Of a stretch of DNA of 64,000 nucleotides, positions 3,031 through 39,413 are shown one piece after another. The DNA comes from a virus. The DNA lies in IMG/VR virus record IMGVR_UViG_3300045988_120604; one strand, given 5' to 3'. The position numbers and the translations under genes are program-made. Each line of letters starts with the position of its first letter. Positions within the stretch are counted from its first letter, which is position 1. The notes below the pieces were generated by a model. The model was not told where the DNA came from. It was given only the letters and a program-made list of their open reading frames with translations, and did no database searches.

Positions 3031-3166
3031 ATTACAATATTTAATAAGTTGAAAATAAGTAGTTTTTATTTTGTGATTTAATAATAGTTGAATGTATTTG
3101 TAGCGCCTATCTGTCCGAGATGGATCGATAGGCGCTTATTTATTAACAATAAAATGATGTAAAATT

Positions 3167-3916: not shown

Positions 3917-4029
3917 CATGCTTTTTCTTACGCAAGAAGGTCTTCGTAAGAACTTAAATAAAATAGCCGAAGGACGAGTAGCATCATTCTTCGGCTATTT
4001 TATTTACCTTTGTTGAAAAACAGATTGTT

Positions 4030-4443
4030 ATGAAACAGGTATCGTATAAAAATGACATATATCCTTACAATATAAGGGTATTGCTTGGAGCAGATGAAGA
4101 GTATATAGTTAAGACGTTCGCCAACCTGGAAGTAGAAGATCAGAGCTGGGAGGGATGGACTGATGATTATGGTGGCAGAACTATTTTCGTAGGAAACCGA
4201 ACCAATCACAGGAAAGAAATATGTTTCTTATTTCATTCACTGTCTGATATGGATGTGAGAACCATAGGGCACGAATGCCTGCATGGTCTTTCTATTTATT
4301 GTAAGTATCTTAATATGGATTACAGTTTTGAAGTAGGAGGAGATGAGCATGCCGCCTGCCTGATGGGATGGTTAGTTGATAAGGTTTGTGATGCTTACCA
4401 TAAGTTCAAGAAGGAGGAAGAGAAAGATGACAAAGAAGAGTAA
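4030..4443 (+). CDS. Small putative Zn-metallopeptidase-like protein (HExxH)
   Basis: Motif HECLHG (HExxH) with a downstream GGDEH; acidic C-terminal tail. Its 3' end overlaps the next gene. Confidence 0.4.
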   Translation: MKQVSYKNDIYPYNIRVLLGADEEYIVKTFANLEVEDQSWEGWTDDYGGRTIFVGNRTNHRKEICFLFHSLSDMDVRTIGHECLHGLSIYCKYLNMDYSFEVGGDEHAACLMGWLVDKVCDAYHKFKKEEEKDDKEE

Positions 4444-21729: not shown

Positions 21730-22260
21730 ATGAGAAGGAGATTTTTTAATGCTGCGGATAATTTCGTGGGAGGATGTTATAATAAGTTATCCAATGAAGA
21801 TATAAAAAGGCTTGGAGGAAAAAGACCTTATGTATGTCAGTTTAATAAAATTCATATACATATAGGACCTGTATTAAAAGATCATGATTCTGATGTTAGT
21901 TACATAATGTTTAATAGTAATTGGAATTATGGTGGTTATGAATCTATGGTTTATAATCATAGCAATAATGGTATTTTTATATTAGGTGAAAACAAAATTG
22001 GTAACATAGAAGATCATATACAAGATCTAACATATTGGTACGAATATGATCCAAGCATTAATGAAAATTATTGTTATTTTTATTATGAGGCTAATAACAG
22101 CGGAAATGCTATCAAGTTGAATGGTGAGTTTGGTGATACCAGTACTGTTTTCAACATTCCCAGCTTGGAAGTCACCACTCTTCGTGATGGCAGTTTGAGT
22201 TTTCCGGAGATTTATATAGAAGGAATTTGGGATCCGTCATTGTATAAGTCGGTTTTATAA
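21730..22260 (+). CDS. Hypothetical protein (177 aa)
   Basis: ATG 21730 sits 3 nt after the upstream stop, with taaggag 9 nt upstream. Confidence 0.5.
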   Translation: MRRRFFNAADNFVGGCYNKLSNEDIKRLGGKRPYVCQFNKIHIHIGPVLKDHDSDVSYIMFNSNWNYGGYESMVYNHSNNGIFILGENKIGNIEDHIQDLTYWYEYDPSINENYCYFYYEANNSGNAIKLNGEFGDTSTVFNIPSLEVTTLRDGSLSFPEIYIEGIWDPSLYKSVL

Positions 22261-22285
22261 TTAACTTTGCAAAAAAGTTAATTAT
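22257..22285. promoter_or_regulatory. Perfect 11-bp-stem palindrome ataattaactt-tgcaaaa-aagttaattat spanning the stop codon, 2 nt before the next ATG; no T-run
   Basis: Direct reading; the reverse complement of ataattaactt is aagttaattat. Confidence 0.5.
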
Positions 22286-22286
22286 A

Positions 22287-24545
22287 ATGGGTGTCAAATG
22301 TCAGATAGAAAAAAAGGAAAATGAAATAAAACGGGTTAAGGCTCCTAACGGGGAGCCTTCCGTTCTTTACGAAAGTGCTTTAAAAGTATTAGGAAACAGC
22401 GAGCGGGCCCTTCAGGTATGGGCTAAGGCTTACACTCCTGGTTTTTTGTCGTATTATGGTCATTGGAATAACCCGGCTCCAGGGGAGATGTTTAATACCG
22501 ATCCCAATGGCGAACCTCTTTTAGAAGACGTGCTGTCGTATATGAAGCGTCAGACTTATTTTGCTGATCCTTTAACGGCTCAGGACATTAAGGATGTAAG
22601 GGATTTCCTTTTGTCTACTCATTATTTTTTTAATGCGTCTTCATTGTCTAATGCTATTCTCTTCGATTTTTATGTAGATGGCAGTTTGATACTGAATGAG
22701 CAGAAATTAAGGAGATCCGGTTTGTATGATGAAACAGAGATAAGTCGTATTTTATCCGATCCTTCTGTTTTAAATGAGGTTTCGACTTCCATGAGAAAGT
22801 TAATAGATTATTCTATTAACGAACATGATAGGGAAAAGGATAATTATTTTATGTCTGTTGACTATCAGTATGGTCCTATTGTTTACAAGGAGGGAGTGTT
22901 TAACCAATTTGGTAAAAAAGTACCATATAATCCTTCTGAGCTTTATTGGGCTATGGGCAAAACAGTAGCCGGCATAAAAAACTTTTCTGAATTTTCATCT
23001 GCTTTTGAATCGTTGAGAAACTCATACCCTGAACTGGTTGAGAAATTCGTTTCTGATAAAGAATTTGCCGAATCTATGTTTGATGAGTTCTCATCTACGA
23101 ATAAGATTCCGGTAATAAACATAGAAGGGGATGATGTGGTAGAAGGCAAGAGAAGATCCTTGTCTAAGCTACAAGATCTGTCTTATTACAATCCTGGCAA
23201 AATAGAGTTCCTAAGAGCTCGTATATCAGCTTATTTACATAGGGCTAATGCCGACACCGAATCCGACTTAAGAAGCATGATATGGGATATAGAAGAGGCT
23301 TGTACGTGGTTTGGCATAGATATAATAGGGACATCGGAAACTTATGATGGCACAGAAGAATCTTTGAATAAGATAGATAATTTGATGCTGGATCTTGATA
23401 TTTATGTGGCCAGGCATAATGATGTAAATTATGCTCCAACGCTGGCATCTTCTATAGATGATATTCTTGGTGATAGCACAGATTATTATTTTGGATTATT
23501 ACCGGAGTATATGGATAATTTGAATATCGTTTATTCTGAATCCGATATAGACCCAGTAGAGGCATTTGAGAAACATTCATTGCTTAAGGTAGGAGATAAT
23601 CTATATCAAAGGATCAGCAAAGATGATCTTAACGAGATGTATCAAATATCAACAGTATTAGCCAAGCACAACCTAACTCATTTTTCTACTAAAATATATC
23701 CTGAATCTTGTTTTAAGAACGGCGTTTTGGATAAAGAGAAAGTACGGAACGTAGATAATAATACGCTCATGGATTCCATTAAAAAATACGTCAGATCGTT
23801 CATGGATTCTCAAAACACAGAGGACATGATAATGACCAGGATGGCGTTTGGGCACCCGGCGGTACTTGACATTTCTTACGCGGATATGGATCGGGAGTAT
23901 AGTCGATACATGAACAAAAAACAAGATAGCGAAAACCCATTATCCTTATTCGATTTATACCAATCTTACCTTGACAACAAACTCCATAAAACAAAATTAT
24001 ATGATAATGCCTATAAGTATCTTGACTTCAAACCTGGTTCATCTTTGGGCCTTATTTCTGATGATCCTGATATTCTGAAATCAATAGAATTATCTTTATC
24101 TGGAAAAGACAGGTTGATGTTGTTTGATTATAGCATGACCAGCACCGATCCTTCTTTATCAAAATTGTTTTATTTGGATAGGTATGACCCTTCGTATGCC
24201 GATAATGATTTTGAACATTATTTTTACACCAGGCACCCGTATCTGTTAAAAGAAAAATCGGGTCCTAATATCGTAGAGCAAGATGGTGTTATAACAGCCG
24301 AAGGTATTTATGATAATTTTATAAGAGTAGGTAATAAGATATGGTCTAAAGTAAGCGAAAGTAGTTCCGGCTCTATCTACCAAAATCTGACAGGAACCGA
24401 ATCGGAGGTGAAATACGATTCTACTCAGAAGGTTAAGACGGTAGAAACCGATTACGCTCCATACCAAAACAGATCTGGCCTGACGCAAGATATGATCGTA
24501 AGCAAGTCTGAATTGGATGATCTTAACAAATTAGAATGCAGGTAA
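22287..24545 (+). CDS. Large hypothetical virion protein (752 aa)
   Basis: Long ORF with no recognisable motif. Confidence 0.6.
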   Translation: MGVKCQIEKKENEIKRVKAPNGEPSVLYESALKVLGNSERALQVWAKAYTPGFLSYYGHWNNPAPGEMFNTDPNGEPLLEDVLSYMKRQTYFADPLTAQDIKDVRDFLLSTHYFFNASSLSNAILFDFYVDGSLILNEQKLRRSGLYDETEISRILSDPSVLNEVSTSMRKLIDYSINEHDREKDNYFMSVDYQYGPIVYKEGVFNQFGKKVPYNPSELYWAMGKTVAGIKNFSEFSSAFESLRNSYPELVEKFVSDKEFAESMFDEFSSTNKIPVINIEGDDVVEGKRRSLSKLQDLSYYNPGKIEFLRARISAYLHRANADTESDLRSMIWDIEEACTWFGIDIIGTSETYDGTEESLNKIDNLMLDLDIYVARHNDVNYAPTLASSIDDILGDSTDYYFGLLPEYMDNLNIVYSESDIDPVEAFEKHSLLKVGDNLYQRISKDDLNEMYQISTVLAKHNLTHFSTKIYPESCFKNGVLDKEKVRNVDNNTLMDSIKKYVRSFMDSQNTEDMIMTRMAFGHPAVLDISYADMDREYSRYMNKKQDSENPLSLFDLYQSYLDNKLHKTKLYDNAYKYLDFKPGSSLGLISDDPDILKSIELSLSGKDRLMLFDYSMTSTDPSLSKLFYLDRYDPSYADNDFEHYFYTRHPYLLKEKSGPNIVEQDGVITAEGIYDNFIRVGNKIWSKVSESSSGSIYQNLTGTESEVKYDSTQKVKTVETDYAPYQNRSGLTQDMIVSKSELDDLNKLECR

Positions 24546-24587
24546 TTTTTGTACATATATATAGTTTTTTCATAGTTATAATTTGGG

Positions 24588-24617
24588 AAGTGAGGCTTGT
24601 GAAAGTCTCACTTTTCT
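24588..24617 (+). terminator. Rho-independent terminator (aagtgag/ctcactt stem, 12-nt loop, tttctc tail)
   Basis: Hairpin 24588-24613 followed by a T-rich run, 43 nt after the stop at 24545. Confidence 0.5.
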
Positions 24618-24767
24618 CATATATGTACGTATATCAATAACATACAAGAAAAGTTAGATTTTCATTGTTTATGAATTATTTTTATTAAGTTTGCAATATT
24701 AGTTTCAGGAAGGGATTATGGAAATAAGGAAAAAGTAAGAACCGAACGTAACTAATAACAGTAGGAA

Positions 24768-24965
24768 ATGAGAATCAGTACCATTAAACGTAACAACAGC
24801 ATTCATCTTATGTATAAAAACATTATGAATGATTTAGGTCAATTAAGAACTGTAGTTTCAAAATCCTATATTTATAATCTGATACAAAATCAAACCGGAT
24901 TAAGTATCAGAACTATATCCCATGTACTTAACCATACCAAAGAACAGGATACGGATTCTTTGTGA
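24768..24965 (+). CDS. Small putative HTH protein (65 aa) upstream of tnpB
   Basis: GLSIRTISHVLNH resembles a LacI/Xre-type HTH recognition helix. No HuH (TnpA) motif. Weak. Confidence 0.3.
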   Translation: MRISTIKRNNSIHLMYKNIMNDLGQLRTVVSKSYIYNLIQNQTGLSIRTISHVLNHTKEQDTDSL

Positions 24966-24969
24966 AAAG

Positions 24970-26545
24970 CATGTGTTTTCATACATTTGTGTGTTCTTTA
25001 GTTTTTAGATAGTCAAACTATTTGTTTATTTTATTAATAATGATCATATTTGTTATATAAATAATTAAAATGAAACTCGTTGAAAGACATATAGTTAAAG
25101 ACAATCGGTTTGAGGATATTTGCCTCAAATCAGGTTTGTTGTATAATTATGTTCTTTACAATATTCGTCAAGGAATTTTTTCTGGTAACTATCTTAAAGA
25201 GTTTGAGCTTTCAAGCAAACTTTGTAAAGAAAACCAATTTGACTTCAGGAATTTACCTAATCATGTTTCACAGCAGGTGATTAAACAGGTATTTAAAAAC
25301 ATAAAATCCTGGATGAAACTCAAGAAAGATTTTGAAAAGAATCCTTCAAAATACGGTAATCATCGTCCACATCTTCCTTCATACAAACGAGGTAAAAAAC
25401 AAAACATTTTTGTTTTTACTAATTGTGATTGCAGGATAAAAGATGATGGTTATATCCATTTTGTCAAAAACACAATTAAACCGATCAAAACGAATATAAA
25501 GAAAGATGAATTAAAACAAGTTAGAATCATACCTCAAGCCACCTGCTATGTAGTAGAGGTAGTTTATGAAAGAAAGGAAACTGATCTTAGTTTAGATAAA
25601 GACAATTTTCTTTCGATTGATTTAGGATTGAATAATTTATGTTCATGTATTAGTAATGTGGAAATCAGTTCTTTCATTATAAACGGACGGGTTATAAAAT
25701 CAGTAAATCAGTGGTACAATAAGAAGAAGGCTAAGTTGATGTCTTTTGTTGGTAATAAGGGAACTTCAAATAAGATTAAAAGGATTACTTTATTACGAAA
25801 CTGTTGGATAGAAGATAAGTTGCATAAGATCAGTAGATACATTGTAGACTTTTGTAAATCTAACAATATAGGAACAATCATCATTGGATTAAACAAAGAA
25901 TGGAAAAACAAGATAAATATTGGTAAACGAAATAATCAACATTTTGTTTTTATTCCTCATTCAAAGTTAATAGATAAGATTGTTTACAAAGCGAAGCTTT
26001 TAGGAATTAACGTTGTTATTCATGAAGAATCTTATACATCAAAGATCGATCATCTTGCTTTTGAACCTCTAAAGAAACAGGAATCCTACTTAGGAAAAAG
26101 GGAGAAACGTGGATTGTTCCAAAGTTCAGTTGGAAAGTTAATCAATGCAGATATCAATGGAGCTATTGGGATAGCAAGAAAAGTAATCGGTGATTCTTTT
26201 ATCAAAAAGATAATCGATAGTGGATTTGTGTTTAATCCAGTTAGATTAAATATTTTGTAATATAAGATTGAATCTAATAAATAAAATGAGTAATTTTAAT
26301 AACATTTAAGTTTTTCATGGTATTAGTTTATATTAGTGTAGATCAGGGTTCGCAGTGATGCGGGCCCTGGTTTGATTTAAAAAGTATTAAAATATTTGCT
26401 ATTTAAGATCCTGTTCCTATCTCTGTTCCAGAAACAATGAACAACGAGATCCCACCTCTGGTTGTTTGATGTTGAAAGATATTTTTGGCTCATTAGGGTT
26501 TGTCATAGTGGAATCTGACATTCTCTTTTGGGCCTATTTTTTTTA
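24970..26545 (+). mobile_element. IS605-like tnpB-only element; boundaries not resolved
   Basis: tnpB plus a 287-bp structured non-coding tail. No terminal inverted repeats detected for this copy. Confidence 0.4.
25070..26260 (+). CDS. tnpB: IS200/IS605-family TnpB (OrfB) RNA-guided nuclease homolog, tnpA-less
   Basis: RuvC-I SIDLGLNNL (D), RuvC-II HEESYTSK (E), RuvC-III NADINGAIGIARK (D). The Zn-finger cysteines normally found between RuvC-II and RuvC-III are absent. Confidence 0.85.
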   Translation: MKLVERHIVKDNRFEDICLKSGLLYNYVLYNIRQGIFSGNYLKEFELSSKLCKENQFDFRNLPNHVSQQVIKQVFKNIKSWMKLKKDFEKNPSKYGNHRPHLPSYKRGKKQNIFVFTNCDCRIKDDGYIHFVKNTIKPIKTNIKKDELKQVRIIPQATCYVVEVVYERKETDLSLDKDNFLSIDLGLNNLCSCISNVEISSFIINGRVIKSVNQWYNKKKAKLMSFVGNKGTSNKIKRITLLRNCWIEDKLHKISRYIVDFCKSNNIGTIIIGLNKEWKNKINIGKRNNQHFVFIPHSKLIDKIVYKAKLLGINVVIHEESYTSKIDHLAFEPLKKQESYLGKREKRGLFQSSVGKLINADINGAIGIARKVIGDSFIKKIIDSGFVFNPVRLNIL

Positions 26546-26547
26546 TT
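26200..26547 (+). ncRNA. Candidate omega-RNA (reRNA) scaffold / right-end region of the tnpB element
   Basis: By established TnpB biology, the guide RNA derives from the 3' end of tnpB plus the right end. The region has GC-rich hairpins such as cagggttcgcagtgatgcgggccctg (26345-26370). No homology check is possible here. Confidence 0.3.
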
Positions 26548-27426
26548 ATGGATAAAGTTTCTGTTTTTGAAAGTTCAGATTTTGGAGAAATTCGTGTCAT
26601 GGTTATAAACGATCAGCCTTGGTTCGTGGGTAGTGATATAGCATCAGCCCTTGGTTATTCAAATGCTTCTAAAGCTGTTTCTGCTCATGTTGATGAAGAA
26701 GATATCGACAGGATATTACTCACTGATTTAGAGCGCTTTACCCAAAATGGGAAAAGCAGAATAAATAATTCTAAAGTAATGATAATCAACGAGTCAGGTG
26801 TTTATAGCTTGATATTATCATCTAAGCTTGATTCAGCAAAGAAATTTAAGAAATGGGTAACATCTGAGGTTCTTCCTTCTATTCGTAAAACAGGAGGATA
26901 CAAAACAAGTCCAGGCGGCAAGGGGATTTTGGTTCCTGATTTTTCCAATCCAGCAGAGGCAGCAAGGGCCTGGGCTGATCAGTACGAAGCTGCCCAAAGA
27001 GCTATAGCTGAAAAGTCGCAGGCAGAGGCAGAGAAGCAACAAGCTTTGAAAACAATAGAAGAGCATAAGCCTGATGTGGAATTTGCCGAGTCTTTTAGGA
27101 AGGTAGCCCATAATAATATGTGGTTGATTCGTGATATTGCTAAAAAGTTAGAACAGAATGGAATCATCATCGCCGAAAAGAATCTTCGATCATTTCTTGA
27201 AGAAGCTAAGTTTATGTTTAGAAACGGTCTTGGAAAATGGGAACTATATAGTAATGTTGTAGCTAAAGGATATGGAGTATATAGATCTTATTTTGTTGAT
27301 AAATATTCTGGTGAAAGAGTTAATCAACAAACTATCTACATGACAGGATCTGGATACGAAGTGACCCTCAATGGCATAAAAGGAAAACTCAAAAATGTGT
27401 TTCTAAAATATGGCAAGTTTGCTTAA
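26548..27426 (+). CDS. Bro-N domain antirepressor-like protein with a KilA-C/ANT-like C-terminal region
   Basis: N-terminal FGEIRVMVINDQPWFVGSDIASALGYSNASKAVSAHVDEED closely matches the Bro-N consensus (compare P22 Ant). Confidence 0.8.
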   Translation: MDKVSVFESSDFGEIRVMVINDQPWFVGSDIASALGYSNASKAVSAHVDEEDIDRILLTDLERFTQNGKSRINNSKVMIINESGVYSLILSSKLDSAKKFKKWVTSEVLPSIRKTGGYKTSPGGKGILVPDFSNPAEAARAWADQYEAAQRAIAEKSQAEAEKQQALKTIEEHKPDVEFAESFRKVAHNNMWLIRDIAKKLEQNGIIIAEKNLRSFLEEAKFMFRNGLGKWELYSNVVAKGYGVYRSYFVDKYSGERVNQQTIYMTGSGYEVTLNGIKGKLKNVFLKYGKFA

Positions 27427-27455
27427 GTTTATTTACAGGTAGTGTTTTAAAAGAA

Positions 27456-28711
27456 GGTGATTATATACCACTTTACACCAAAAGCGTAAAGTAATACACA
27501 TTTATACGGAAATTCGTACCGGGTTACACCAAAACCCTCTACCTTCTGGTAACATCGTTACATCAAAGGATTCTTTTTCCGATTTACGGATGATGTTAAA
27601 AGCACCATTGATATCAGCATTAATTGTCTTACCAGAAGAGGTTTTAAACAATCCTCGTTTAATCCTTCTTCCTTTGTAAGATTCATGTTTGCAAATCCGT
27701 TCATTATCTAAAAAGCTACATTTTGAAGTATAAGATTCTTCAACGATCTTAACATTTATTCCTTCTAATGTTGCTTTATAAGATATCATTGAAATAAACA
27801 TATTAAAAGGAATAGATACAAAGTTCTGATTATTTCGTTTTCCGATATTGATCTCTTGTTTCCAGCATTTGTTATGACCGATTATGATCGTATTAATACC
27901 ATTGGAAACTACATGATTAACCAATATTCTACTTGCTTTATGCAGATAGTCTTTGATCTTGTTATTCCTTTTGTCGGTTAATGACCTTATTTGTTTTGAA
28001 ATCTGTTTATTGTCTTTTAACTTAGATTTTAAGAATGCTAACCTTTTGTTATAATATTGGTTAATAGACTTTAGTGGTCTACCATTGATGATAAAACAAG
28101 AACCGTTGTTAGAAACACAAGATGCTAAATTATCTAATCCTATGTCGATGCCAAGATAGTTTCCATTATCTGACATAAGATTCTTTTCCTTCTTGTTGTA
28201 AACTATTTCAAGAACAATATACCCATTCTTAGGAATGAATCTAAGTTGTTGAATATTTTGTTTATTGGTTCTTGTGGTGAAAGAAAATTGCTTTGGTAAC
28301 TTAACAATGCCTTGTTTTATCCATTTTTGAGAAAAAGCATTTGTTGCAAAAACAGCAGGAAACAAACCACCCTTGTTGAGCAACCGGTGCTGGTAAAGCA
28401 CGATAGTCAACATCATTTTCTGTTCTTAACTTCTTTTCAAGAGAATAGTAGTTTAGGTACTTATACTTTACAGTATTATCATCCTTGTATTGAAAATAAT
28501 ACTGTCTAACAACATATAACCCTTTATTGTATAAGTTTTTACACTTATGCAATAGATCATAAAGTTCATTGTAATAAACAGAACTTGGTTTGATCGTATG
28601 TTGTTCGACTAATCTCATGACACAAATATAGAAATTATTATTTATAAAATTATTATTTATATATGAAAACAAATTGGCGTATTTGTGGTGTAAAGTTGTA
28701 TATAATTACCT
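27456..28711 (-). mobile_element. tnpB element bounded by ~24-bp imperfect inverted repeats (IR-L 27456-27479 ggtgattatataccactttacacc; IR-R 28688-28711 ggtgtaaagttgtatataattacc)
   Basis: 22/24 identity between the reverse complement of IR-L and IR-R. Similarity extends into flanking ttttggtg/tttgtggtg. Confidence 0.65.
27502..28672 (-). pseudogene. tnpB: IS200/IS605-family tnpB split by a +/-1 frameshift near 28385-28400 (N-terminal 123-aa ORF 28301..28672 plus C-terminal 304-aa ORF 27502..28416)
   Basis: The N-terminal ORF (MRLVEQH...DYRALPAPVAQQ) and the C-terminal ORF (...AVFATNAFSQKWIKQ...LGIDIGLDNL...EESYTSK...NADINGAFNIIRK) align co-linearly with the plus-strand TnpB but sit in different frames. 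The RuvC D-E-D triad is present; two Cys remain in the Zn-finger region. Confidence 0.65.
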
Positions 28712-28880
28712 AAAGATGTTAAAAATTGGCTCGAATCTCTACCAAAGATCTGAACCTATTTTTTTTAATACCAGGCCCGATTCGATTTTAACGTATCGGG
28801 TTTTTATTTTAATTCATATTGTTTTATTTTAAATCTAATTAATTCATGAATGTCGTACTTTTGTTGAAAAAGTATTCTAT

Positions 28881-29108
28881 ATGGAAAATAAGGAAGATTA
28901 CGTTGGTTACGAAGATCAAGAACTGTGTAACCGGTATTACAAAGAGGCTGAAGCCATGAGGCAAAAGCAGGACTGGTCTCGGCTTAGGGCTGTCCCTGCT
29001 CCGGCCAAGGGAACGCCTTCGCCCGGCTGGGGTCAGCTTGGACGTGGAAATGATGTCCGTGTTAAGTACGTTAGCATCAATTCAGGATTAGGAGGGGACA
29101 GATTATGA
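28881..29108 (+). CDS. Hypothetical small protein (75 aa) containing a GC-rich patch
   Basis: ORF ends in an ATGA overlap with the next ORF. Confidence 0.35.
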   Translation: MENKEDYVGYEDQELCNRYYKEAEAMRQKQDWSRLRAVPAPAKGTPSPGWGQLGRGNDVRVKYVSINSGLGGDRL

Positions 29109-31241: not shown

Positions 31242-34200
31242 ATGACATCAACGTGTATTATTAAAAGAGATAATAAAAAGAAAGTTGTTTCTGTCTCTAC
31301 CAGATCAGGGGACAGGTCTATGTTGTTTGATAAAATAGCATCTGTTCCCCTTATGGAGAATAGGGAACGGGCTACTACTGTTTTTAAAACCGTATTTTCT
31401 AATAAGTTCTTAAAGGCTTTTGGCGACTGGAGAAAGAGAGTGCCTATCAACAAACAGGCTTATAATAAGGTAAAATCCAACATCGATCTTATCCCAGAAG
31501 CCTATATAGAAAGGGTGCTGGATAAGGCTTCTAAGATGAGTAACCCTGTTCTTGTGTCAAAATCAGATGCACCTTATGGGATTCAAGAATCGGGCTTTGG
31601 ATTCTACAGCCAAGATCTGGGTGATAATATTATGTTGGTGGATGCTATGGTTCCGTCAAGTATTTCCGTACCGGAAGGACCGGGAATAGACGCCGGGCAG
31701 TATCTACAAGATGCTATATCTTCGGACTTCACTCCCGTATCTATGGTACAGGATAAGGGTGTTAATTATATGGTTATAAAAGACGGTCTTAAGATATTTA
31801 GCCCAGAGGAGTTACCAGAAACAGATTCTAATCCTGTGGGTGTAACGTATCAGACCGGAGAGCCTCGTTTGTTTTTCATGAACGATCGTAATCAATTATT
31901 TGAAGATTACGGAGAAGCTCTTCGCTCTGGCGGGAATGATATTAGAATAGGATTCTTATCCGGCACCGTTCAAGAATCTACCGTGGATGGCGTGGCAGAC
32001 ATTACTTACAAGGCTGGAAAGTATGTTCTTAATAATCCCAAGTCTTTTATACCGGTCATGACCGCTTCTGCTTCTACTTCTTTATCAACGAAAGGCGGGA
32101 TAATTAACTACCTTATAAAGAAAGGTCTTTTGTCAGGATCTAAGATATTCGATCCTGAAACAAGAAGCTATTATCTTACAGGAGAAGGTCATACAGGACA
32201 AATTAGACTTTTCAATTCAGCCTTATCCTACACCGAGCTCCGTAATCATTTTGGTTCAGATGTTTCCATGAACGACCAGGGTATGATAACCATAAGCTCG
32301 TTGGATAATAGTAAGGTAACTATGAGACTCGCTACCGGAGGGACGGAAAGGGTTAGTAGGGAACAGATAAAGAACGATCTCAAGTCAGGAAGATACAATG
32401 AATTGGATGCTAAGTACGATCATTTTGATGCGCTTGTAGTTTCATTCATATTAGAAGACAACGATCTTTATGCTGATGCTAAAGCTAAGATCGTATCAGA
32501 TTATAGCAGGCAGGAACGTGACCAACGAAATTCTATTGTCGAGATACTGAAAACGCTGGGCGTTAGTGTCATAGGTATGACCGACTATATAGAGAAGTAC
32601 CAAACCAAATACGGGCATGAACCTTCTGCTAAGGCATTGGCGGATATTGCCAATAACGTAATAGCAGTTGGTGAAGATGCTACTTTATCTGATTTAGTAG
32701 AAGAAACAGCCCACTTCCTTGTAGAGGCATACAGAGATCAGAATGCTGTTGAGGCTGTTCTGCAAGATGTAGAAGGTACGGAAGAGTGGAACCAATATGC
32801 AGGTCAGTATTATAATACATACGGTAAGGTATATGAAGGAGCTGAGCTTGATAATGCTGTTAGGAGAGAAATTCTTGGAAAGATCCTCGCCAGGGAGATG
32901 CAGACCGGCACAGCACAGGCGCCGGTAGAGCCCACCTCCTTCCTGGGGCGCGTCCGGCAGCTTCTCTCTGGAATCGTAAGCTGGCTTAAATCAGCTTTAT
33001 CAACCCAAAGACAAGATTTGAATAACGTTATTAAAAACATTCGTGATCTTGCCATTACTGACATAGATAAAGGATTTGACACCTCTCTGTTAAAGGATAA
33101 TGACTTTACATTATATTCCCTTTCTTCTATGAACAAGAACAAGTTTCTTGAGTCTAAAATCCGGGCATTAAGGAAAACATTAAGAGACTTACGTCAGATA
33201 AGCTCTGATAGGGCTGTAACTACGTCTATGACCCTTGCGCAGCTTAAGACCATAGAAGATAAGATAAATAAAGTAGAGACCGAAATAGACAAGAATGAGA
33301 TGGCGGCTGCCATGAACAGCATGATCTCCACAGCCGAAGCTCAGGTCAGATACTTAAGTAATGTGGTGAACATCATCCTTCATGGTGATACCAAAGACGG
33401 TAAGCTTCACTTCAATACCAATGATCGAAAGAACGTAGATATTATCAACAATCAGGTTCTTCCGATCATGAACGATCTTCGAGGATATATCCGTAACAGA
33501 AGTACCGAATTTGATGAACGTGAAAAGCAGGATTATACAAATAGGATCAATACCGTCATTGCCGACATCAATGGTATTCAGTCTGATATTAAATCAGTAC
33601 AAGACCTTGATGAAAGTACGTTGCTTGATAAGTTAATGAACGAACTTCATGTGCCGGCAGATAAGGTAAAGAGAGTAAAAGAATTTTTCGACAAGGTTCA
33701 ACACGATGTTTCTTGGATAAGTAGGTGGTTTGGTATATTAGAGCATTCTTCCAGTCCGTTCAATAACGCTCTTGGAGCTATGATTGCCAAAGACAATTAC
33801 AATGCGATGGTGAATGCCCAGCCCGCCATATCCGACTTCCTGGCATATGCGAAAAAGCATGGTTTTAACAAATCTGAATTTGAAAAACTGCTTCAGAAAG
33901 TAGACAGCAAAACTTCTAATTACCTTCGTAGTGCTCTTGATATGGCTAAATACGATCGTAATAAGAAGCTGGCGCAGATGCGAGCGTTTGCGACTGCCAT
34001 GAACATAGAGATATCAGAAGAAGAAATTGGTGATGTGGTTGACAATAACCGTAATTACGTATTTAAAAGAGAAGTAGTTGACAAGGATGGAAATACGGTT
34101 ACTGAAAACGCTAAATTCAAACCATCGTCTGATAGAGTTAATACCGATATTTTTACCATCGAGCAGGAAAAGATCTATACAGAGCAGATGGAAAAGTGGG

Positions 34201-37200
34201 ATGCTGAAAATTCGGAACTGGAATTTAGCGAAAGTTATGCCACAAGAATGGAATCCATATACAAAAAGGCTGAAGAAGAATTAGGGCATCCGGTTTCTCA
34301 AACAACCAAAGAATACCTTAATGCTCTATCCCGGCAAAAACGGATATTGAGGCAGCCTTTTATTGATAGCGGTGGTAATTTTGATGAAGTTGCCTATTTT
34401 AAAAGCAGCAATTACGAAGAAGAAGGACTGCTTCGTAAACAACGTAAGGAAGCAGCTTCAGAATACATATATGTAGGAACCAGGAGAGTGGAAAAAACCG
34501 GCGACCAACTTAAGATGGCCAAAGAAATACAAGCTATAAATGAAGTTTGGAGAAAGGAATCAAATAATGTTACTAATGCCGTATCAGAATCGTTTTTGCA
34601 AAAATTGAGAGCGATTCAGAGCGAGTCAGGAGGGGAAGCTGCATTGAGAACGCTTATGTTGGGTGGTCACCTGTCATTCAACGATCGGTTTTGGAATGAT
34701 ATAGAATCGGAACAGTCAGCGCGTACCGAATCAAATAACAAGGCTTCGTATCTCAAAATGGCGCATGATATCATTAGTTCTACGACAAGTGATAGAGATG
34801 CGACTGACGTGGATTCTATTGTGAAAGATATAGAAAAAAATAAGGCCATTATCAAGGAAATAATCGGAAACAATCGCGATGTGGCTGATATCGGAGAGAT
34901 TAACGAAGCGACATTTACCTCATCTGAAAGAGATGCTTTTAGGGCCGCATCTGAAGCTATTGAAGCCGATTACGCTATTTTGATAGATTATGTTAAGATG
35001 GTGGGTCTTGAAGATATTGATAAGTACCTTACTAAAAGCAGTAAGGCTGAAAACGAAGTAAATCAGTCTTATTTAAATGCTCTTGCTGACTCCAAGGAAG
35101 TGGAATGGAAGTTCGTACAACGTCATACTACGGCGAAGAAAGCAAGAAGGATTCAGGCTTTAAGGGATAAGCTGTTTAAGGCTGCTGATAACCGATATTT
35201 GTTTACCGTATCTGAAACCAACTACCTGTCAGAAAAGCTTGGTATAAGCAAAGAATTAGACGGTAGAGATTTTAGGAATGCTGTTAATGCTAAGATGGCC
35301 AGCTTATTTTTAAATAATACAAGGGAAGAGGGCATAGAAGAGGCCAATGCTATTGTTAATGAATTTGCCAGGAGCCAGGTTTTTTCGTACTATAAACGCA
35401 TGGCTCCTACCGGATATGCGGCTATGATCGACAAAATCGGTCGAGGTGAGATAGATGTGGCGCAGATGGTTAAGGACGTACAAAACGGTACATCCACCCA
35501 AGATTATGGCATGGACATATCGTACCTGTCTTTCGATCCTGCAAGGGCATGGGTGGCTGAATCTGAAGCCGAAAATAGCGGCCGTAATCCTGATTATGTA
35601 AAAGATCATGGGTATGGTCATCGCATGCCTAAGAAAAGCCTGTATCGTGACGAATCGTATTTCAATGACTTTGGTATCAAGTATGATGCTGACGGTAATG
35701 AAGTTGCTACTAAAAACGTAGAGCAGTGGAATATGATTCAAAAACTCAAGGAAATAAAAAGACAATCCCTTGATCTATACAAAGAGCAGAGCCCGAACCT
35801 GTATGCTATTCCACAGATATCAAAACAAGACATAGAACGTATGGAAGGATTGGGTATTAACTTCAAAAATACGGTTCGTAATTTTGTATCAGATCTGTGC
35901 CTGGACAGAGTAGACGATTCTCTATACGGTAAAACCAGGCAAGGAGAAGTATATGATCCGGAAGATAGACTTAGGTCTATACCTAAATACTACATATATG
36001 AATTGGAGAACCAAGATGATGTATCTCACGATTTTGGCTACTCTTATTCGATGCTTATGATGCAGTCATCGTTATACAACGAAAAGCAGAAGTCTATAGA
36101 GCTCGCTCAAGGACTGGAGCAGATGTTGCTGAATAAGCAATTTGAAGGCGGGAAGAAAGCTGAAGCGACTCAAGCATATCAGATGTTTAGGGACTTCTTC
36201 AACGATCATTATTATGGCATTAGGATGAACACCAAAAAACTTACGGTGAACATCGGAGGATATACGGTAGACCTTACAAGAATTATGATGGCTGTTGAAA
36301 GATTTATGTCGGTCATGAACTTGGCACTGTCTCCGTTTGTGGCAGCTACCGGCGCCTTAACAGGTCATATCAACCTCATCATGGAATCTGCCGTAGGACA
36401 GTATATAAGCAAAGACTCCCTTAAATACGCATCGGCTGAATTTTCACGCCTTGCTCCGTCTTGTATAGCAGAAACCGGAGACATAGATAGGAAAAGCAAA
36501 TTATATGTCATAGGTGAGAGAATGGGGATATTCAATATCCGAAATCGTATGTATGGTGCCGGATACAATAGAGCGGCCAGGACCTTAATGCGTTCGCCTA
36601 TGTATGCTTTTATGGAAATCCTGAACTACCCTCTTGATCCGCAGGTTATGATTGCTACTATGGACAATGTTCGTTATTACAAAGGCCGGTTCTACACGTT
36701 CCAAGATTTCAAGATGGAAAAAGAACGTAATAAAGAACAGAGTACCATAAAAAGAGAATGGAATGCATTAAAAGATCGTACTTTATGGAGTATGGTAGAC
36801 GTCGTGGATGGGAAGGTGGTTGTAAAGCCAGGATCGGGTGTTACTGTTGAGGAAGTAGAAACCCAGATGGCTATAACCAGGAATCAAGTCCGTAGCTTGT
36901 CGCAGATATGTAACGGATCTTTGAATGAAGAAAACCGAACTGCCGCATCGCGCAACTGGATAGCCAGGTTCATGACCGCCCACCGAGGGTGGTTGGTGCT
37001 GGCGGCTCAACGTCTGTGGAAAAGACGTGGCTTCAATTTCCAGACAATGCAAGAAGAGGAAGGGTTGTCAATTACGTTAAAGAATATGATAGCCAAAACA
37101 TTTAGCCTGGCTTCCGAGTCTGGTATGAAAAACATCATAGATGCCTGGAACGAAAATAAAGACAATATGGATGAGGTAGAGAAAACTAATCTCAAACGCC

Positions 37201-37664
37201 TCAGTGTCTATGCCGGCACGTTCCTTATCATGCAAGCCGTATCCATGCTTCTTGCCGGATGGCGTGATGATGATGAAAACGAAGAAAGTTGGCTTACTCA
37301 ATTTGGATCTTACGTTGGATTCAGAACCATAAACGAAATAGCTTCACAGATGCCGTTTATTATGGAGCTTAACGTGGTAGATATCATTAACGATCCGTTT
37401 GTTATGGGGCGGAAACTGAAGGATCTTACCGATCTTAGGAATTATTCACTTGATGAAGTAACATCCGGCACATACAAAGGAGAGTCTAAGTTATTTAGGC
37501 AACTCGCCAAACAGACGTTTATCAAACAATGGTATAATATCAAGACGCCGGAAGACGTAGCGCGCGCCTATAATTGGTGGCAGCAGACAAACAACAAGTC
37601 AATGATGTTCTTCATCGGCGCTACTCCTGATTCGGAAGGAGACGATGACGTTAGTTACAAATAG
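31242..37664 (+). CDS. Giant virion protein (2140 aa); candidate cargo protein. A virion-RNAP-like role is possible but unproven.
   Basis: Last gene of the plus-strand block, the position occupied by giant cargo/RNAP proteins in crAss-like phages. It contains YDADGNE, which only partially matches the DxDGD catalytic motif. Confidence 0.7.
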   Translation: MTSTCIIKRDNKKKVVSVSTRSGDRSMLFDKIASVPLMENRERATTVFKTVFSNKFLKAFGDWRKRVPINKQAYNKVKSNIDLIPEAYIERVLDKASKMSNPVLVSKSDAPYGIQESGFGFYSQDLGDNIMLVDAMVPSSISVPEGPGIDAGQYLQDAISSDFTPVSMVQDKGVNYMVIKDGLKIFSPEELPETDSNPVGVTYQTGEPRLFFMNDRNQLFEDYGEALRSGGNDIRIGFLSGTVQESTVDGVADITYKAGKYVLNNPKSFIPVMTASASTSLSTKGGIINYLIKKGLLSGSKIFDPETRSYYLTGEGHTGQIRLFNSALSYTELRNHFGSDVSMNDQGMITISSLDNSKVTMRLATGGTERVSREQIKNDLKSGRYNELDAKYDHFDALVVSFILEDNDLYADAKAKIVSDYSRQERDQRNSIVEILKTLGVSVIGMTDYIEKYQTKYGHEPSAKALADIANNVIAVGEDATLSDLVEETAHFLVEAYRDQNAVEAVLQDVEGTEEWNQYAGQYYNTYGKVYEGAELDNAVRREILGKILAREMQTGTAQAPVEPTSFLGRVRQLLSGIVSWLKSALSTQRQDLNNVIKNIRDLAITDIDKGFDTSLLKDNDFTLYSLSSMNKNKFLESKIRALRKTLRDLRQISSDRAVTTSMTLAQLKTIEDKINKVETEIDKNEMAAAMNSMISTAEAQVRYLSNVVNIILHGDTKDGKLHFNTNDRKNVDIINNQVLPIMNDLRGYIRNRSTEFDEREKQDYTNRINTVIADINGIQSDIKSVQDLDESTLLDKLMNELHVPADKVKRVKEFFDKVQHDVSWISRWFGILEHSSSPFNNALGAMIAKDNYNAMVNAQPAISDFLAYAKKHGFNKSEFEKLLQKVDSKTSNYLRSALDMAKYDRNKKLAQMRAFATAMNIEISEEEIGDVVDNNRNYVFKREVVDKDGNTVTENAKFKPSSDRVNTDIFTIEQEKIYTEQMEKWDAENSELEFSESYATRMESIYKKAEEELGHPVSQTTKEYLNALSRQKRILRQPFIDSGGNFDEVAYFKSSNYEEEGLLRKQRKEAASEYIYVGTRRVEKTGDQLKMAKEIQAINEVWRKESNNVTNAVSESFLQKLRAIQSESGGEAALRTLMLGGHLSFNDRFWNDIESEQSARTESNNKASYLKMAHDIISSTTSDRDATDVDSIVKDIEKNKAIIKEIIGNNRDVADIGEINEATFTSSERDAFRAASEAIEADYAILIDYVKMVGLEDIDKYLTKSSKAENEVNQSYLNALADSKEVEWKFVQRHTTAKKARRIQALRDKLFKAADNRYLFTVSETNYLSEKLGISKELDGRDFRNAVNAKMASLFLNNTREEGIEEANAIVNEFARSQVFSYYKRMAPTGYAAMIDKIGRGEIDVAQMVKDVQNGTSTQDYGMDISYLSFDPARAWVAESEAENSGRNPDYVKDHGYGHRMPKKSLYRDESYFNDFGIKYDADGNEVATKNVEQWNMIQKLKEIKRQSLDLYKEQSPNLYAIPQISKQDIERMEGLGINFKNTVRNFVSDLCLDRVDDSLYGKTRQGEVYDPEDRLRSIPKYYIYELENQDDVSHDFGYSYSMLMMQSSLYNEKQKSIELAQGLEQMLLNKQFEGGKKAEATQAYQMFRDFFNDHYYGIRMNTKKLTVNIGGYTVDLTRIMMAVERFMSVMNLALSPFVAATGALTGHINLIMESAVGQYISKDSLKYASAEFSRLAPSCIAETGDIDRKSKLYVIGERMGIFNIRNRMYGAGYNRAARTLMRSPMYAFMEILNYPLDPQVMIATMDNVRYYKGRFYTFQDFKMEKERNKEQSTIKREWNALKDRTLWSMVDVVDGKVVVKPGSGVTVEEVETQMAITRNQVRSLSQICNGSLNEENRTAASRNWIARFMTAHRGWLVLAAQRLWKRRGFNFQTMQEEEGLSITLKNMIAKTFSLASESGMKNIIDAWNENKDNMDEVEKTNLKRLSVYAGTFLIMQAVSMLLAGWRDDDENEESWLTQFGSYVGFRTINEIASQMPFIMELNVVDIINDPFVMGRKLKDLTDLRNYSLDEVTSGTYKGESKLFRQLAKQTFIKQWYNIKTPEDVARAYNWWQQTNNKSMMFFIGATPDSEGDDDVSYK

Positions 37665-37843: not shown

Positions 37844-38040
37844 TGTTGTCAATTATTGCTATCTTGCAAACAAAAAATCATGAGACGAAGATTTCAAATA
37901 GGGAGGGGGGTAAATCCCTCGCTTATAATCAATAAAGGCATATACATCCAACATGTAGATGGAGGATTTATACAAAAGAAAATTGGTCTAATAAAGGATA
38001 TTCCAATGATCTATGCAATGGAATAGCTCTTGTAGATAAA

Positions 38041-38631
38041 GTGTGTTTTGTTATAGCCACCGAATATATTGGCACATTTCGTTGGGGTAAGGATGGAAAA
38101 ATAGACAATATATTGGCACAAGATAGTTCTCATATTGGAACTATTAAAAAGGATTATTGGGGGCGTGAAAATCAGAATGCGTATCTTGAATATGATACCA
38201 GTAATACAGATTACGCTTTTAATAAAGCTAATAGCTATTTATTTAAAAATGGTCAAAATGGATATGTAGGTGGCGCCGGAGAGTTTTTTTTGATATCATT
38301 GTATGCGAATGAAATAAACGAATGCCTTTTAATGGTAGGAGGTACGATAATGAGTAATAGAATGTGGACATCCACTCGAAATACAAAATTTTCTATATAC
38401 CAATCTTCTAAAAAACGGTTGGATACTGTGTATATTCGAGGAGGTGTTCCAATGGAAGATAGGCAAGAGATCGATAGTCAGGTTGATACGATAAAGGAAT
38501 TGCTTGAACAGGATTCGGTGGTTCTTGCTATTGCTTTAACAACCTCTCCTTATTATGGATTTAGAGTAAGTGTGATAGCACCACCCACGTTCTTCCATAA
38601 TGGTCCTAATGTCCCCTTCTATGAAATCTGA
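38041..38631 (+). CDS. Hypothetical protein (196 aa)
   Basis: ORF; its 3' end overlaps a candidate minus-strand small ORF. Confidence 0.4.
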   Translation: MCFVIATEYIGTFRWGKDGKIDNILAQDSSHIGTIKKDYWGRENQNAYLEYDTSNTDYAFNKANSYLFKNGQNGYVGGAGEFFLISLYANEINECLLMVGGTIMSNRMWTSTRNTKFSIYQSSKKRLDTVYIRGGVPMEDRQEIDSQVDTIKELLEQDSVVLAIALTTSPYYGFRVSVIAPPTFFHNGPNVPFYEI

Positions 38632-38703
38632 GGCATTCATTGAATGTGTAGAGTTGGGATTGTGCTTGGCACCACACTTAGGACATACGAGTTGGTAATT
38701 CAT
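38536..38703 (-). CDS. Small zinc-ribbon ORF (55 aa, MNYQLVCPKCGAKHNP...), ATGA-coupled to the upstream gene
   Basis: caaggaggaagtatcATGA: a strong SD lies 7 nt upstream of an ATG that overlaps the TGA of gene 38700..39413. Confidence 0.3.
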   Translation of the reverse strand: MNYQLVCPKCGAKHNPNSTHSMNASDFIEGDIRTIMEERGWCYHTYSKSIIRRGC

Positions 38704-39413
38704 GATACTTCCTCCTTGTTTTTAGATTCTGCCTCTTCAAGTATGCTGATTACTTTATCGACGATATCTGAATCTGACATTTTCTCAATAAAAACATCCA
38801 TTGCCTTAGTTATGTCATTGGCTTCTTTTTCTTCAAGAGCTATTTCTCCACCGGTAATAGCATCAGATAATGATGTAGATAAGTGTCTTATCTTATCAAT
38901 GCTCATAAACGTAAATGGGTTACCACCCCAGCCTCCACCCATTTCTTTCATGATCTGATATCCACCTGAAATAAGTCTGCCTGATGTCGTAGCCAAGGAG
39001 GATACGATTAGGGACAGTACCGCCGCTTCCGTCCGCTCCTCGGACACGCCCTTCGACCACACGGCTGCCCTTATAGCGCCGGCCAGGTCGTCTATGTATG
39101 GCATGAGACAATCTTCCATTGCTTGTGTTATATCAGCAATAACCTCACTACGTTCTTTGTTTATGTAATATATAGAGGCATTGTATCTTTTTATCTCCTT
39201 ATCCATATCATTCAAAAATCGTTTGACATTATGTTTGTACATAGGACCACCCTTAATTACTTCCTTTAGCTTAAGAATGTAATTATAAGCCTGGTCATTT
39301 ACGAACAACGTCATGGTTTCAACCGTTGAATGAAGCGTGTTGAGGCTGTTAAGAATCTTATCGAAATTGTTTATCAAATAAGCTTTTCTGGCTTTTGCTG
39401 CATAGTTAATCAT
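38700..39413 (-). CDS. Hypothetical protein (237 aa)
   Basis: ORF in a co-directional operon. Confidence 0.6.
   Translation of the reverse strand: MINYAAKARKAYLINNFDKILNSLNTLHSTVETMTLFVNDQAYNYILKLKEVIKGGPMYKHNVKRFLNDMDKEIKRYNASIYYINKERSEVIADITQAMEDCLMPYIDDLAGAIRAAVWSKGVSEERTEAAVLSLIVSSLATTSGRLISGGYQIMKEMGGGWGGNPFTFMSIDKIRHLSTSLSDAITGGEIALEEKEANDITKAMDVFIEKMSDSDIVDKVISILEEAESKNKEEVS

Follow-up and report, generated by a model that had tools for sequence, protein, structure and literature searches.

Two unlike TnpB transposons, probably acquired separately, on either side of an antirepressor-like gene in a human-gut phage

Introduction

Described TnpB transposons of the IS607 family (IS607 of H. 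pylori, ISXfa1; PMC6188088, PMC10711439) carry tnpA directly upstream of, and overlapping, tnpB, and the described members end in and insert at GG and have G-rich target-adjacent motifs (TAMs; PMC13565253, PMC10711439). A second group of TnpBs is associated with DDE transposases and inverted terminal repeats, and solo TnpBs mobilised in trans are also known (Altae-Tran et al. 2023, PMC10691335). In the TnpB guide RNA the scaffold stops at the right end of the element and the guide is formed by the next ~16 nt, and both restorative and non-restorative homing by TnpB have been described (PMC13565253). Here, two tnpB-bearing elements were analysed in a 64,000-nt stretch of viral DNA (IMG/VR record IMGVR_UViG_3300045988_120604, the whole of which is referred to as the window), in which an intact tnpB at 25070-26260 on the plus strand and tnpB-coding DNA at 27502-28618 on the minus strand converge on a gene encoding Bro-N and ANT domains. 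The preferred reading, to which a probability of roughly 80% is given, is that two unlike, separately acquired, non-autonomous TnpB transposons flank the Bro-N/ANT gene in a ~150-kb human-gut phage of the csAssE-Sib lineage, and that the bracketing is incidental. The element on the plus strand is intact and the element on the minus strand is broken.

The plus family is like IS607 in having neither terminal inverted repeats nor target duplication, in a predicted structured right-end RNA overlapping the 3' end of tnpB and in the occurrence of solo tnpB derivatives, and one relative (L046) likewise has tnpA directly upstream of, and overlapping, tnpB. The plus copy differs in having no tnpA, AT-rich ends (GAT or TAT flank, ...AAC(A/G)T right end) and no C4 zinc finger, and many of its relatives differ in lying within start codons, which they regenerate. 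In this last respect the closest comparison is with IStrons (fusions of introns with IS605 or IS607; PMC13565253), which also place a TnpB element in essential genes without destroying them; there the damage is avoided by RNA splicing, whereas in the plus relatives it would be avoided by insertion at AT^G (^ here and below marks the insertion point) with a GTG supplied from the right end.

The minus element resembles the DDE-associated TnpB branches, as set out in the text of PMC10691335, in that tnpB lies at most ~50 nt from the element end and the repeats are identical to those of transposase-bearing elements. Its partner is a transposase of the IS1595 family, whereas IS630, 'ISL2' and IS1031 are the partners named for DDE branches in the available text of PMC13565253, and here the elements proliferate in phage genomes. 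IS1595 is named neither in PMC10691335, the supplement with its six DDE branches aside, nor in the available text of the latter review (2026), and no paper linking TnpB with IS1595 was found in a literature search. With the IS1595 family itself the minus element shares GG-initial repeats and, through its relatives but not in the window copy, 8-bp AT-rich duplications, as well as the existence of cargo-carrying members and, in autonomous relatives, DDE_Tnp_IS1595; it differs in having no transposase and in carrying nothing but a broken tnpB and an omega-RNA region. A parallel is also found in Fanzor2* and Fanzor1 of eukaryotic cut-and-paste transposons (PMC10711439), where a TnpB of IS607 ancestry likewise lies inside a transposon with inverted repeats and duplications and where, as predicted for the minus element, the right-end repeat is part of the guide-RNA scaffold; the minus element differs in its prokaryotic/phage context.

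The locus and its relatives

The window is 100% identical to the human-gut metagenome contig L251, and the flanks are ~95% identical to phage csAssE-Sib (OR575929, 151 kb), which has the same neighbourhood, comprising a 752-aa gene, a small helix-turn-helix (HTH) gene and Bro, without tnpB at the site. The original prediction, made from the sequence of the window, had placed two convergent tnpB genes around a Bro-N gene, and this arrangement agrees with the open reading frames (ORFs) and Pfam annotation; both copies indeed lack tnpA. The two genes had further been described as belonging to divergent families of IS200/IS605 type, which does not hold on either count, since the proteins are 45% identical and share the motifs ESYTSK ... 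RGLF ... NADING of a single clade, and the plus element is IS607-like while the minus element is bounded by IS1595 ends.

The plus element and its IS607-type relatives

The features of the plus element are as follows.

25011..26305, plus strand: plus element, a tnpA-less, IS607-family-like TnpB transposon of 1295 bp, with a junction ambiguous by the dinucleotide AT
25011..25069, plus strand: left end of the plus element, 59 nt, aligning with related solo elements and with the end of L046 upstream of tnpA
25008..25010, plus strand: GAT, directly 5' of the left end, candidate TAM or integration core
25070..26260, plus strand: tnpB(+), intact, 396 aa, above Pfam and NCBIfam cutoffs, with an AlphaFold2 fold and a conserved catalytic triad

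Pairwise alignment demonstrated that window positions 22253-25010 and 26304-27455 are contiguous in csAssE-Sib, where the empty site reads TTTTTAGAT^TTAAGTTTTTCATGG, and this comparison leaves only a 2-nt ambiguity at the junction and no target-site duplication in the window. The same ends recur in relatives: homology with an 80%-identical copy in MT835500 ends exactly after ...AATAACAT / ...AATTTTAATAACAT, and the right end ...AAC(A/G)T, located 45 nt past the tnpB(+) stop codon, is common to 80 related loci from viral contigs, with 34 different flanks beyond it. The left flank is GAT at 9/9 clearly resolvable sites of the ...AACAT subfamily and TAT in the ...AACGT subfamily. No terminal inverted repeats were found on the plus element.

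The family assignment derives from the relative L046, whose TnpB is 76% identical to the plus copy and is directly preceded by a 194-aa ORF overlapping the tnpB start. This ORF carries Pfam Resolvase and HTH domains, matches the NCBIfam IS607 family transposase model NF033518 at 167.7 bits (cutoff 110), and is itself preceded by a left end homologous to the 59-nt end of the window copy, also with a GAT flank. Because an IS607 tnpA thus overlaps a related tnpB and is joined to a homologous left end, the plus element is considered IS607-derived. The serine-recombinase TnpA is absent from 25011-26305, MT835500 retains only a C-terminal tnpA remnant, and the plus element can be classed as a tnpA-deleted, non-autonomous member of an IS607-type (serine recombinase) family. 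Elsewhere in the lineage, a serine recombinase 30% identical to the L046 IS607 TnpA is encoded at L120 6496-7005, ~2.2 kb beyond a minus-type element, and is either a possible trans-acting transposase or part of another element.

Domains, catalytic triad and fold of the TnpB proteins

The protein encoded by tnpB(+) matches the Pfam families OrfB_IS605 (E 6e-18) and Cas12f1-like_TNB (E 7e-8), both of which were also assigned above cutoffs to the 304-aa minus ORF, and against the NCBIfam model guided_TnpB (cutoff 100) the plus copy reaches 154.7 bits and the intact protein of the minus type 183.3 bits. The D-E-D triad reported for both copies was confirmed: among 95 homologs of the plus copy D184 and D361 never vary and E320 is kept in at least 90%, and the minus fragment retains the IDIG, EESYTSK and NADING motifs. 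The 394-396-codon ORF is kept in 78/80 of the loci related to the plus element, at 68-92% amino-acid identity. An AlphaFold2 model built on a 95-sequence alignment has a pLDDT (predicted local distance difference test score) of 92.2 and a pTM (predicted template modelling score) of 0.86, a single-sequence model (pLDDT 38) having been discarded; Foldseek matched it to AsCas12f (E 7e-17), ISFba1 TnpB (2e-12), ISDra2 TnpB (2e-11) and Fanzor2 (3e-10), so that the structural modelling proposed for a zinc-finger-less TnpB returned a TnpB/Cas12f fold.

This protein had been singled out as an unusual variant for its lack of zinc-finger cysteines. The lack itself is confirmed, in that RuvC-II and RuvC-III are joined by a linker, folded into short beta strands in the model, with no Cys in the plus copy and two in the minus type, but the state is neither peculiar to this copy nor new. 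A search of 1.84 billion cluster representatives returned 1128 relatives at E < 1e-30; 131 full-length representatives, 36-50% identical, were examined, and in 108 of them the limits of the linker could be set. In these and the two query TnpBs (110 sequences) the linker always has 0-2 Cys, and it generally spans 33 aa and carries a conserved (K/R)RGLF motif. Absence of the zinc finger thus characterises the clade as a whole. The zinc finger has been lost in some large TnpB branches (PMC10691335), and for this reason its absence does not affect the membership of TnpB(+) among the TnpBs; the NADxN motif puts both proteins in the 'derived' clade of the same paper. The proteins do not resemble TldR-like nuclease-dead regulators, the triad being conserved and the elements mobile.

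The predicted guide of the plus element and a FopS-like sRNA gene

The following features bear on the predicted RNA of the plus element and on the phage DNA into which it is inserted.

26187-26217 and 26222-26238, plus strand: two conserved RNA hairpins inside the 3' end of tnpB(+), core of an omega-RNA-like scaffold (RNAalifold)
26239..26305, plus strand: rest of the predicted scaffold on its 3' side, as far as the right end, highly conserved among relatives
26306..26325, plus strand: predicted guide TTAAGTTTTTCATGGTATTA in the right-end flank, from the element boundary and the published architecture (PMC13565253, PMC10711439)
26308..26381, plus strand: body (seed and terminator hairpin) of a FopS-like small RNA (sRNA) gene, native phage DNA, Rfam RF04319 sub-threshold
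24982..24989, plus strand: Bacteroidetes-type -7 box TACATTTG of the native sRNA gene, from a motif scan, putative promoter
26480..26487, plus strand: -7 box TATTTTTG upstream of Bro, from a motif scan, putative
26548..27426, plus strand: Bro-N + ANT (KilAC) antirepressor-like gene of 292 codons (Pfam Bro-N E 9e-27, ANT E 7e-13)

The last 180 nt of the plus element were aligned across 35 non-identical relatives (68-92% protein identity). The two hairpins comprise 16 pairs with 99.1% of cells paired, and compensatory double changes occur in 6/16 of these pairs within coding sequence; none of 500 shuffles reached the observed values and slid partners paired in 24-60% of cells. A third helix proposed by hand (~26241-26248 with 26270-26277) is weakly supported, at 80.5% paired with little covariation, and RNAalifold found no long-range helix or pseudoknot closing the last 65 nt. 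The structure and covariation check suggested for the tnpB 3' ends thus found conserved RNA structure at both, whereas alignment to RNA family models matched no Rfam family at either: neither the whole window at the gathering threshold nor a permissive scan of 24500-29000 yielded an omega-RNA, HEARO or RAGATH-type family, and the sole relevant result of the permissive scan was a sub-threshold match to FopS.

It had been proposed that the 287-nt tail at 26261-26547 is a structured omega-RNA. The tail does fold better than its shuffles (z = -3.85), but 243 of its 287 nt lie outside the plus element and are present in a relative without tnpB at this position, and its hairpins correspond to the sRNA terminator, an intergenic hairpin and a hairpin in the likely Bro leader, on the downstream side of the TATTTTTG box at 26480. 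Most of it, 26306-26547, is native phage DNA made up of the FopS-like sRNA gene followed by the Bro leader. With the right end at 26305, the guide that had been expected somewhere within 26400-26547 moves to 26306-26325.

FopS sRNAs repress susC mRNAs in Bacteroides, and a copy has been noted in a Caudovirales phage (PMC11697453). Like FopS (RF04319; PMC11697453), the window sRNA has its 17-nt seed on the 5' side, is unpaired there and carries a terminator hairpin, and a promoter box of the canonical Bacteroidetes kind lies upstream; the 17-nt FopS seed is matched exactly, the terminator hairpin stands at the right distance and the csAssE-Sib counterpart is found at L001 6503-6576. Against a gathering score of 56, RF04319 reaches 26.7 bits in the window and, where csAssE-Sib has the locus uninterrupted, 29.9 bits (E 0.011); the sRNA is accordingly named only 'FopS-like'. 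Unlike FopS, it falls below the Rfam threshold, its transcript is probably 5'-extended and its promoter has been split off by the plus element. The TACATTTG box lies 21 nt upstream of the insertion point in the window and directly upstream of the FopS-like sequence in csAssE-Sib, so insertion of the plus element would have cut the sRNA body from its likely promoter, which now faces tnpB(+). The predicted plus guide coincides with the FopS seed. A guide aimed at host FopS genes was considered and is unlikely, given that the 4 TAM-proximal bases and the TAM would mismatch. A FopS-like terminator segment was also found on both sides of a plus-type element in one relative (L005 2803-2941 and 4225-4270).

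The plus element inserted after GAT, without duplication, within the 5' part of the phage FopS-like sRNA gene. Transcription of its tnpB may start at the sRNA promoter that the insertion captured or within the left end of the element itself, with the 3' end of the mRNA (~26187-26305) serving as the omega-RNA scaffold and the adjacent 16-20 nt from 26306 as the guide. TnpB(+) would then cut genomes that have GAT and the target but not the element, whether those of co-infecting phages or one from which the copy has excised, and repair would copy the element back in. Movement to new sites would require an IS607 TnpA in trans.

The minus element is a broken IS1595-type transposon

The minus element and its parts are as follows.

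27456..28710, minus strand: minus element, bounded by IS1595-type terminal inverted repeats with tnpB as sole cargo, 1255 bp through an internal deletion
27456..27483, no strand: right-end terminal inverted repeat, the same repeat as flanks IS1595 transposase elements
28683..28710, no strand: left-end terminal inverted repeat, forming an inverted-repeat pair with 27456..27483
27502..28618, minus strand: tnpB(-) pseudogene, with codons 1-82 at 28618-28373, the rest at 28386-27505 in another frame and a stop codon at 27502-27504
28623..28630, minus strand: putative -7 box TATATTTG from a motif scan, located within the left end and 5 nt ahead of the start codon (ATG) of tnpB(-)
27462..27569, minus strand: omega-RNA-like structured region, with hairpins at 27542-27569, 27521-27537, 27504-27519 and 27462-27500
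27436..27455, minus strand: predicted guide TTCTTTTAAAACACTACCTG in the right-end flank, within the Bro 3' untranslated region (UTR) and the disrupted Bro terminator

The repeats are 28-29 nt long (29-nt arms are 90% complementary) and read GGT(A/G)ATTATATAC(A/C)ACTTTACACC, and homology with csAssE-Sib starts and stops at them. At another locus, csAssE-Sib carries a 90%-identical minus-type copy (64111-65459) with an intact TnpB of 407 aa. Relative to this copy the window element has lost 107 nt at ~28374-28378, flanked by AACA microhomology, which removed ~31 WED/REC residues and shifted the frame, and the minus strand now shows two overlapping ORFs in different frames (28301-28672 and 27502-28416). 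On account of this deletion and frameshift tnpB(-) is regarded as a pseudogene, and the single minus gene formerly annotated at 27502..28672 does not exist as such. The possibility that homologs would reveal both copies as degraded remnants with disrupted RuvC residues is realised only in the frameshift of the minus copy, as the RuvC residues are intact in both.

The minus family is abundant, with more than 587 hits and 80 intact copies of 1346-1350 bp (typically 1347) from viral contigs. An 8-bp duplication with at most 1 mismatch was found in 17 of 44 distinct flank pairs, compared with 0.74 expected by permutation. The duplicated octamer always begins with T and is preceded by T-W-A in 15-16 of the 17, giving the target T-W-A^T-N7.

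Structure at the 3' end of the minus tnpB has moderate support, the family being of low diversity (88-100% protein identity). Across the family, 38 pairs are paired in 98.2% of cells, compared with 35-54% for slid partners, and 4 pairs show compensatory changes. Many of the pairs are G-U and therefore strand-specific, which favours an RNA of the tnpB sense strand. The second hairpin, GGGUU-N7-AACCC, has the design of hairpin 2 in the plus family, and in the 27462-27500 hairpin, with its 16-bp stem, the inverted repeat itself supplies the 3' arm. The window copy retains all of these hairpins (27462-27569) intact. Being variable, the 8-bp duplication cannot belong to the scaffold; it would form the first 8 nt of the guide, with T-W-A just upstream as candidate TAM. 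The minus guide had been expected at ~27430-27450, close to the 27436-27455 now predicted in the Bro 3' UTR. The counterpart of 27436-27455 in csAssE-Sib makes up the 3' half of a terminator hairpin and follows TTA, in agreement with T-W-A^T-N7.

Mobilisation of the minus element and the missing 3.2 kb

The repeat of the minus element occurs at both ends of a 2243-bp element found by a bacterial-genome scan in a Mucilaginibacter metagenome-assembled genome, where it encloses a DDE_Tnp_IS1595 transposase with KilA-N cargo. In L227-L234 a 24-nt repeat core identical to that of the TnpB element surrounds a 307-aa IS1595 transposase (NF033547 192.7 bits, cutoff 75; Pfam E 3e-42), and this core is found in L166 as well. 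These IS1595 elements are on viral contigs of the same ~150-kb lineage, partly on contigs that also bear TnpB elements, and an 8-bp duplication, perfect in some cases, was seen in 3-4 of 11 transposase-bearing elements. Between the minus repeats of the window only tnpB is found and no IS1595 transposase is encoded in the window; because its repeats are identical to those of DDE_Tnp_IS1595 elements, the minus element is assigned to the IS1595 type, and it can be described as a non-autonomous transposon whose cargo is confined to tnpB and the RNA region. Trans-mobilisation of the minus element is implied: a TnpB related to the plus copy, together with its omega-RNA region, would have become the sole cargo between IS1595 terminal inverted repeats, and the family would be moved by the IS1595 transposase of sister phages, with 8-bp duplications at T-W-A^T-N7.

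The IS1595 elements of L227-L234 are 3.1-3.5 kb long (L228 181-3690, L232 538-3690) and contain variable small cargo ORFs, some of them lipoprotein-like. In Parabacteroides sp. AM08-6 two contigs break shortly past the repeat (L167 3821-3844 and L168 6860-6883), which suggests a multi-copy insertion sequence in a possible host; a 144-aa ORF with HExxH comes after the repeat in L168.

Fourteen other contigs (the L120 group) carry an element at the site that forms the left-end flank of the window copy. Beyond this site, L120 and csAssE-Sib have ~3.2 kb of genes (L001 7657-10862; L120 4272-6402) that are lost in the window, where the right end abuts the Bro terminator at the junction 27455/27456. 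The window copy thus has no duplication because its two flanks belonged to separate target sites and the ~3.2 kb between these has been lost, either by recombination of two same-orientation copies or by a transposase-made adjacent deletion. Across the family, 27 of the 44 flank pairs (L085-L164) also have no duplication, though each flank alone fits T-W-A^T-N7, which implies frequent rearrangement between copies in these phage genomes.

The ends of the two families also bear on another proposal, in which a Y1 HUH TnpA would move both as common IS200/IS605 elements of the IS1341 group and the minus repeats would be subterminal hairpins. The Pfam domain name OrfB_IS605 is in keeping with it, and insertion of the plus element beside a short motif without duplication would also fit IS605. 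Yet the only transposase found joined to the plus family is a serine recombinase, and the minus family has 28-29-nt terminal inverted repeats, 8-bp duplications and IS1595 DDE ends. A Y1 tnpA was not seen in the upstream ORFs of the roughly dozen representative loci examined, although not all fetched loci were screened. The minus repeats as IS605-type subterminal hairpins were rejected, as they are true inverted repeats with 8-bp duplications and ends common to DDE elements, and the proposal as a whole is hardly credible.

The position of the two elements around Bro

Both right ends face Bro, the predicted minus guide would lie in the Bro 3' UTR, and the minus insertion took away the 3' half of the Bro terminator hairpin, and it is conceivable that the two TnpB/omega-RNA units act jointly on Bro-N, with guides in its leader and 3' end, for example as an RNA-guided regulator of the antirepressor. 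A guide next to Bro does not imply any relation to Bro, however, because the guide of any such element is its own right-end flank. The plus guide (26306-26325) is 220 nt upstream of Bro and inside the sRNA gene, the minus tnpB is frameshifted, and the catalytic residues are intact, unlike those of domesticated regulator TnpBs. Further, Bro occurs with neither element in csAssE-Sib and with the plus element only, at the same site as in the window, in L006, L250 and L252, of which L250 and L252 have a different, ANT-less Bro gene. The two families are also found at dozens of unrelated sites, with 34 (plus) and 44 (minus) flank contexts in related phages. A pair directed at Bro is consequently very unlikely and largely refuted. 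The bracketing looks incidental, and regulation of Bro by either element finds no support in the comparisons made here.

Bro itself varies among these relatives. A shorter, Bro-N-only gene (L250 7400-8044, L252/L253 7479-8045) stands beside an identical TnpB(+) protein, and homology of L250/L252 with the window stops at 27032, within Bro. This break inside the gene suggests that the C-terminal ANT domain is a swapped module.

Start-codon insertions by relatives of the plus element

Of 34 distinct right flanks (L005-L084), 20 show an ATG or GTG that is formed by the last 2 bases of the element with the first base of the flank and opens an ORF of at least 60 codons; 18 of these 20 are GTG sites of the ...CGT subfamily. 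A clean case is provided by L044 (~2940-4240), in which the element lies between TAT and G-TCG-AGT..., inside a start codon. The target there is a homolog of the 2140-aa gene of the window, the same gene is hit in L070 (~4228), and the window ORF (31242-37664) represents the empty allele. Relatives of the plus element thus appear to insert at AT^G and to give the gene a new GTG start 45 nt past the tnpB stop. In the window, the plus copy rebuilds no start codon and sits in the sRNA gene.

These sites, together with the abundance of the elements, raise the question of whether intact copies are kept mainly for the benefit of the phage, as RNA-guided homing endonucleases or gene drives against co-infecting phages that lack the insertion, a role resembling that of the free-standing homing endonucleases of T-even phages and unlike the self-maintenance of a transposon after excision. 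There are hundreds of TnpB copies in this one phage lineage; tnpA-less copies are intact in 78/80 cases with RNA structure kept and no transposase nearby; and with many insertions in start codons of long, probably essential genes, a naive competitor would be cut in an essential gene. An identical TnpB(+) protein is found in genomes with a differing right-hand neighbourhood, and homing without TnpA has been reported for plasmids (PMC13565253). Nevertheless, the identity of the element between the window and L006 (90.9%) is not above that of its flanks (95.7% and 83.2%), a common insertion site can result from vertical inheritance, and with full IS607 and IS1595 elements in the lineage ordinary transposition and restorative homing are sufficient. 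Maintenance chiefly for phage benefit is therefore treated here as a doubtful, though not negligible, alternative to two ordinary, separately acquired transposons.

Points weighing against two separately acquired transposons

Several observations count against the reading of the two elements as non-autonomous IS607-like and IS1595-type transposons. The 64-kb window encodes no transposase of either type, and the window minus copy has no target duplication. The plus family has neither GG ends nor adjoining G-rich motifs, unlike described IS607 members, and its junctions point to no single recombination core: the ...CAT subfamily is consistent with AT, but in the ...CGT subfamily the junction dinucleotides differ (AT versus GT) and the crossover dinucleotide is inconsistent. 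The omega-RNA ends, guides and TAMs of both elements are inferred from sequence, RNAalifold gave no consensus fold for the last 65 nt of the plus scaffold, and the comparison of identities between the window and L006 showed no homing signature and is uninformative.

Some of these points would equally be expected if both copies were inert relics whose conserved 3' sequences reflect only recent common descent, since the minus copy has plainly decayed, the window lacks a transposase gene and Rfam recognises no RNA family. This is improbable in view of the plus ORF, which is intact as in 78/80 relatives at 68-92% amino-acid identity, the compensatory base changes inside coding sequence, the invariant triad and the many distinct insertion sites.

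Other features of the window and its sister phages

A 23-nt inverted repeat at 24600-24664, just past the 752-aa ORF, is probably a terminator, and a sub-threshold match to the Bacteroides sRNA BTnc231 covers 24561-24664. The cumulative GC skew of the window peaks at ~38000-39000 with a flip of sign, consistent with a switch in gene orientation. In the sister phage L252, a gene for an RRXRR + HNH endonuclease of homing type (10639-11859) is located a few kb downstream in the same variable region.

Implications

The locus is best seen not as a device acting on the antirepressor but as two selfish insertions of an ordinary kind, of which one is dead. In a single abundant lineage of human-gut phages, TnpB copies number in the hundreds and use two mobilisation machineries, the IS607 serine recombinase and the IS1595 DDE transposase, and the occurrence of TnpB with IS1595 ends and an 8-bp duplication is an association not named in the literature covered. 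The restoring of start codons by relatives of the plus element would explain how transposons spread in a gene-dense lytic genome. For tests of phage homing and gene drive these elements supply TnpBs that are small (396-407 aa) and zinc-finger-less, whose candidate TAMs are AT-rich and whose predicted guides have defined boundaries, and relatives with and without the plus insertion are natural variants for the study of the FopS-like sRNA.

More tentatively, and as a proposal that is itself rather unlikely at present, the TnpB transposons of this gut-phage lineage may have adapted to a compact phage genome, as an IS607-like gene drive with a preference for insertion at AT^G and a sister TnpB captured by IS1595. 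If so, the IS607-like family would have switched from GG to AT targets and essential genes would survive insertion by means of a rebuilt GTG, while the guide would cut the first codons of the same essential gene in a naive co-infecting phage, making a strong gene drive. In the empty site the minus TAM would be found directly 5' of the octamer that becomes duplicated, and the capture of TnpB by IS1595 would match, in a prokaryotic/phage setting, the way in which eukaryotic cut-and-paste transposons took up Fanzor.

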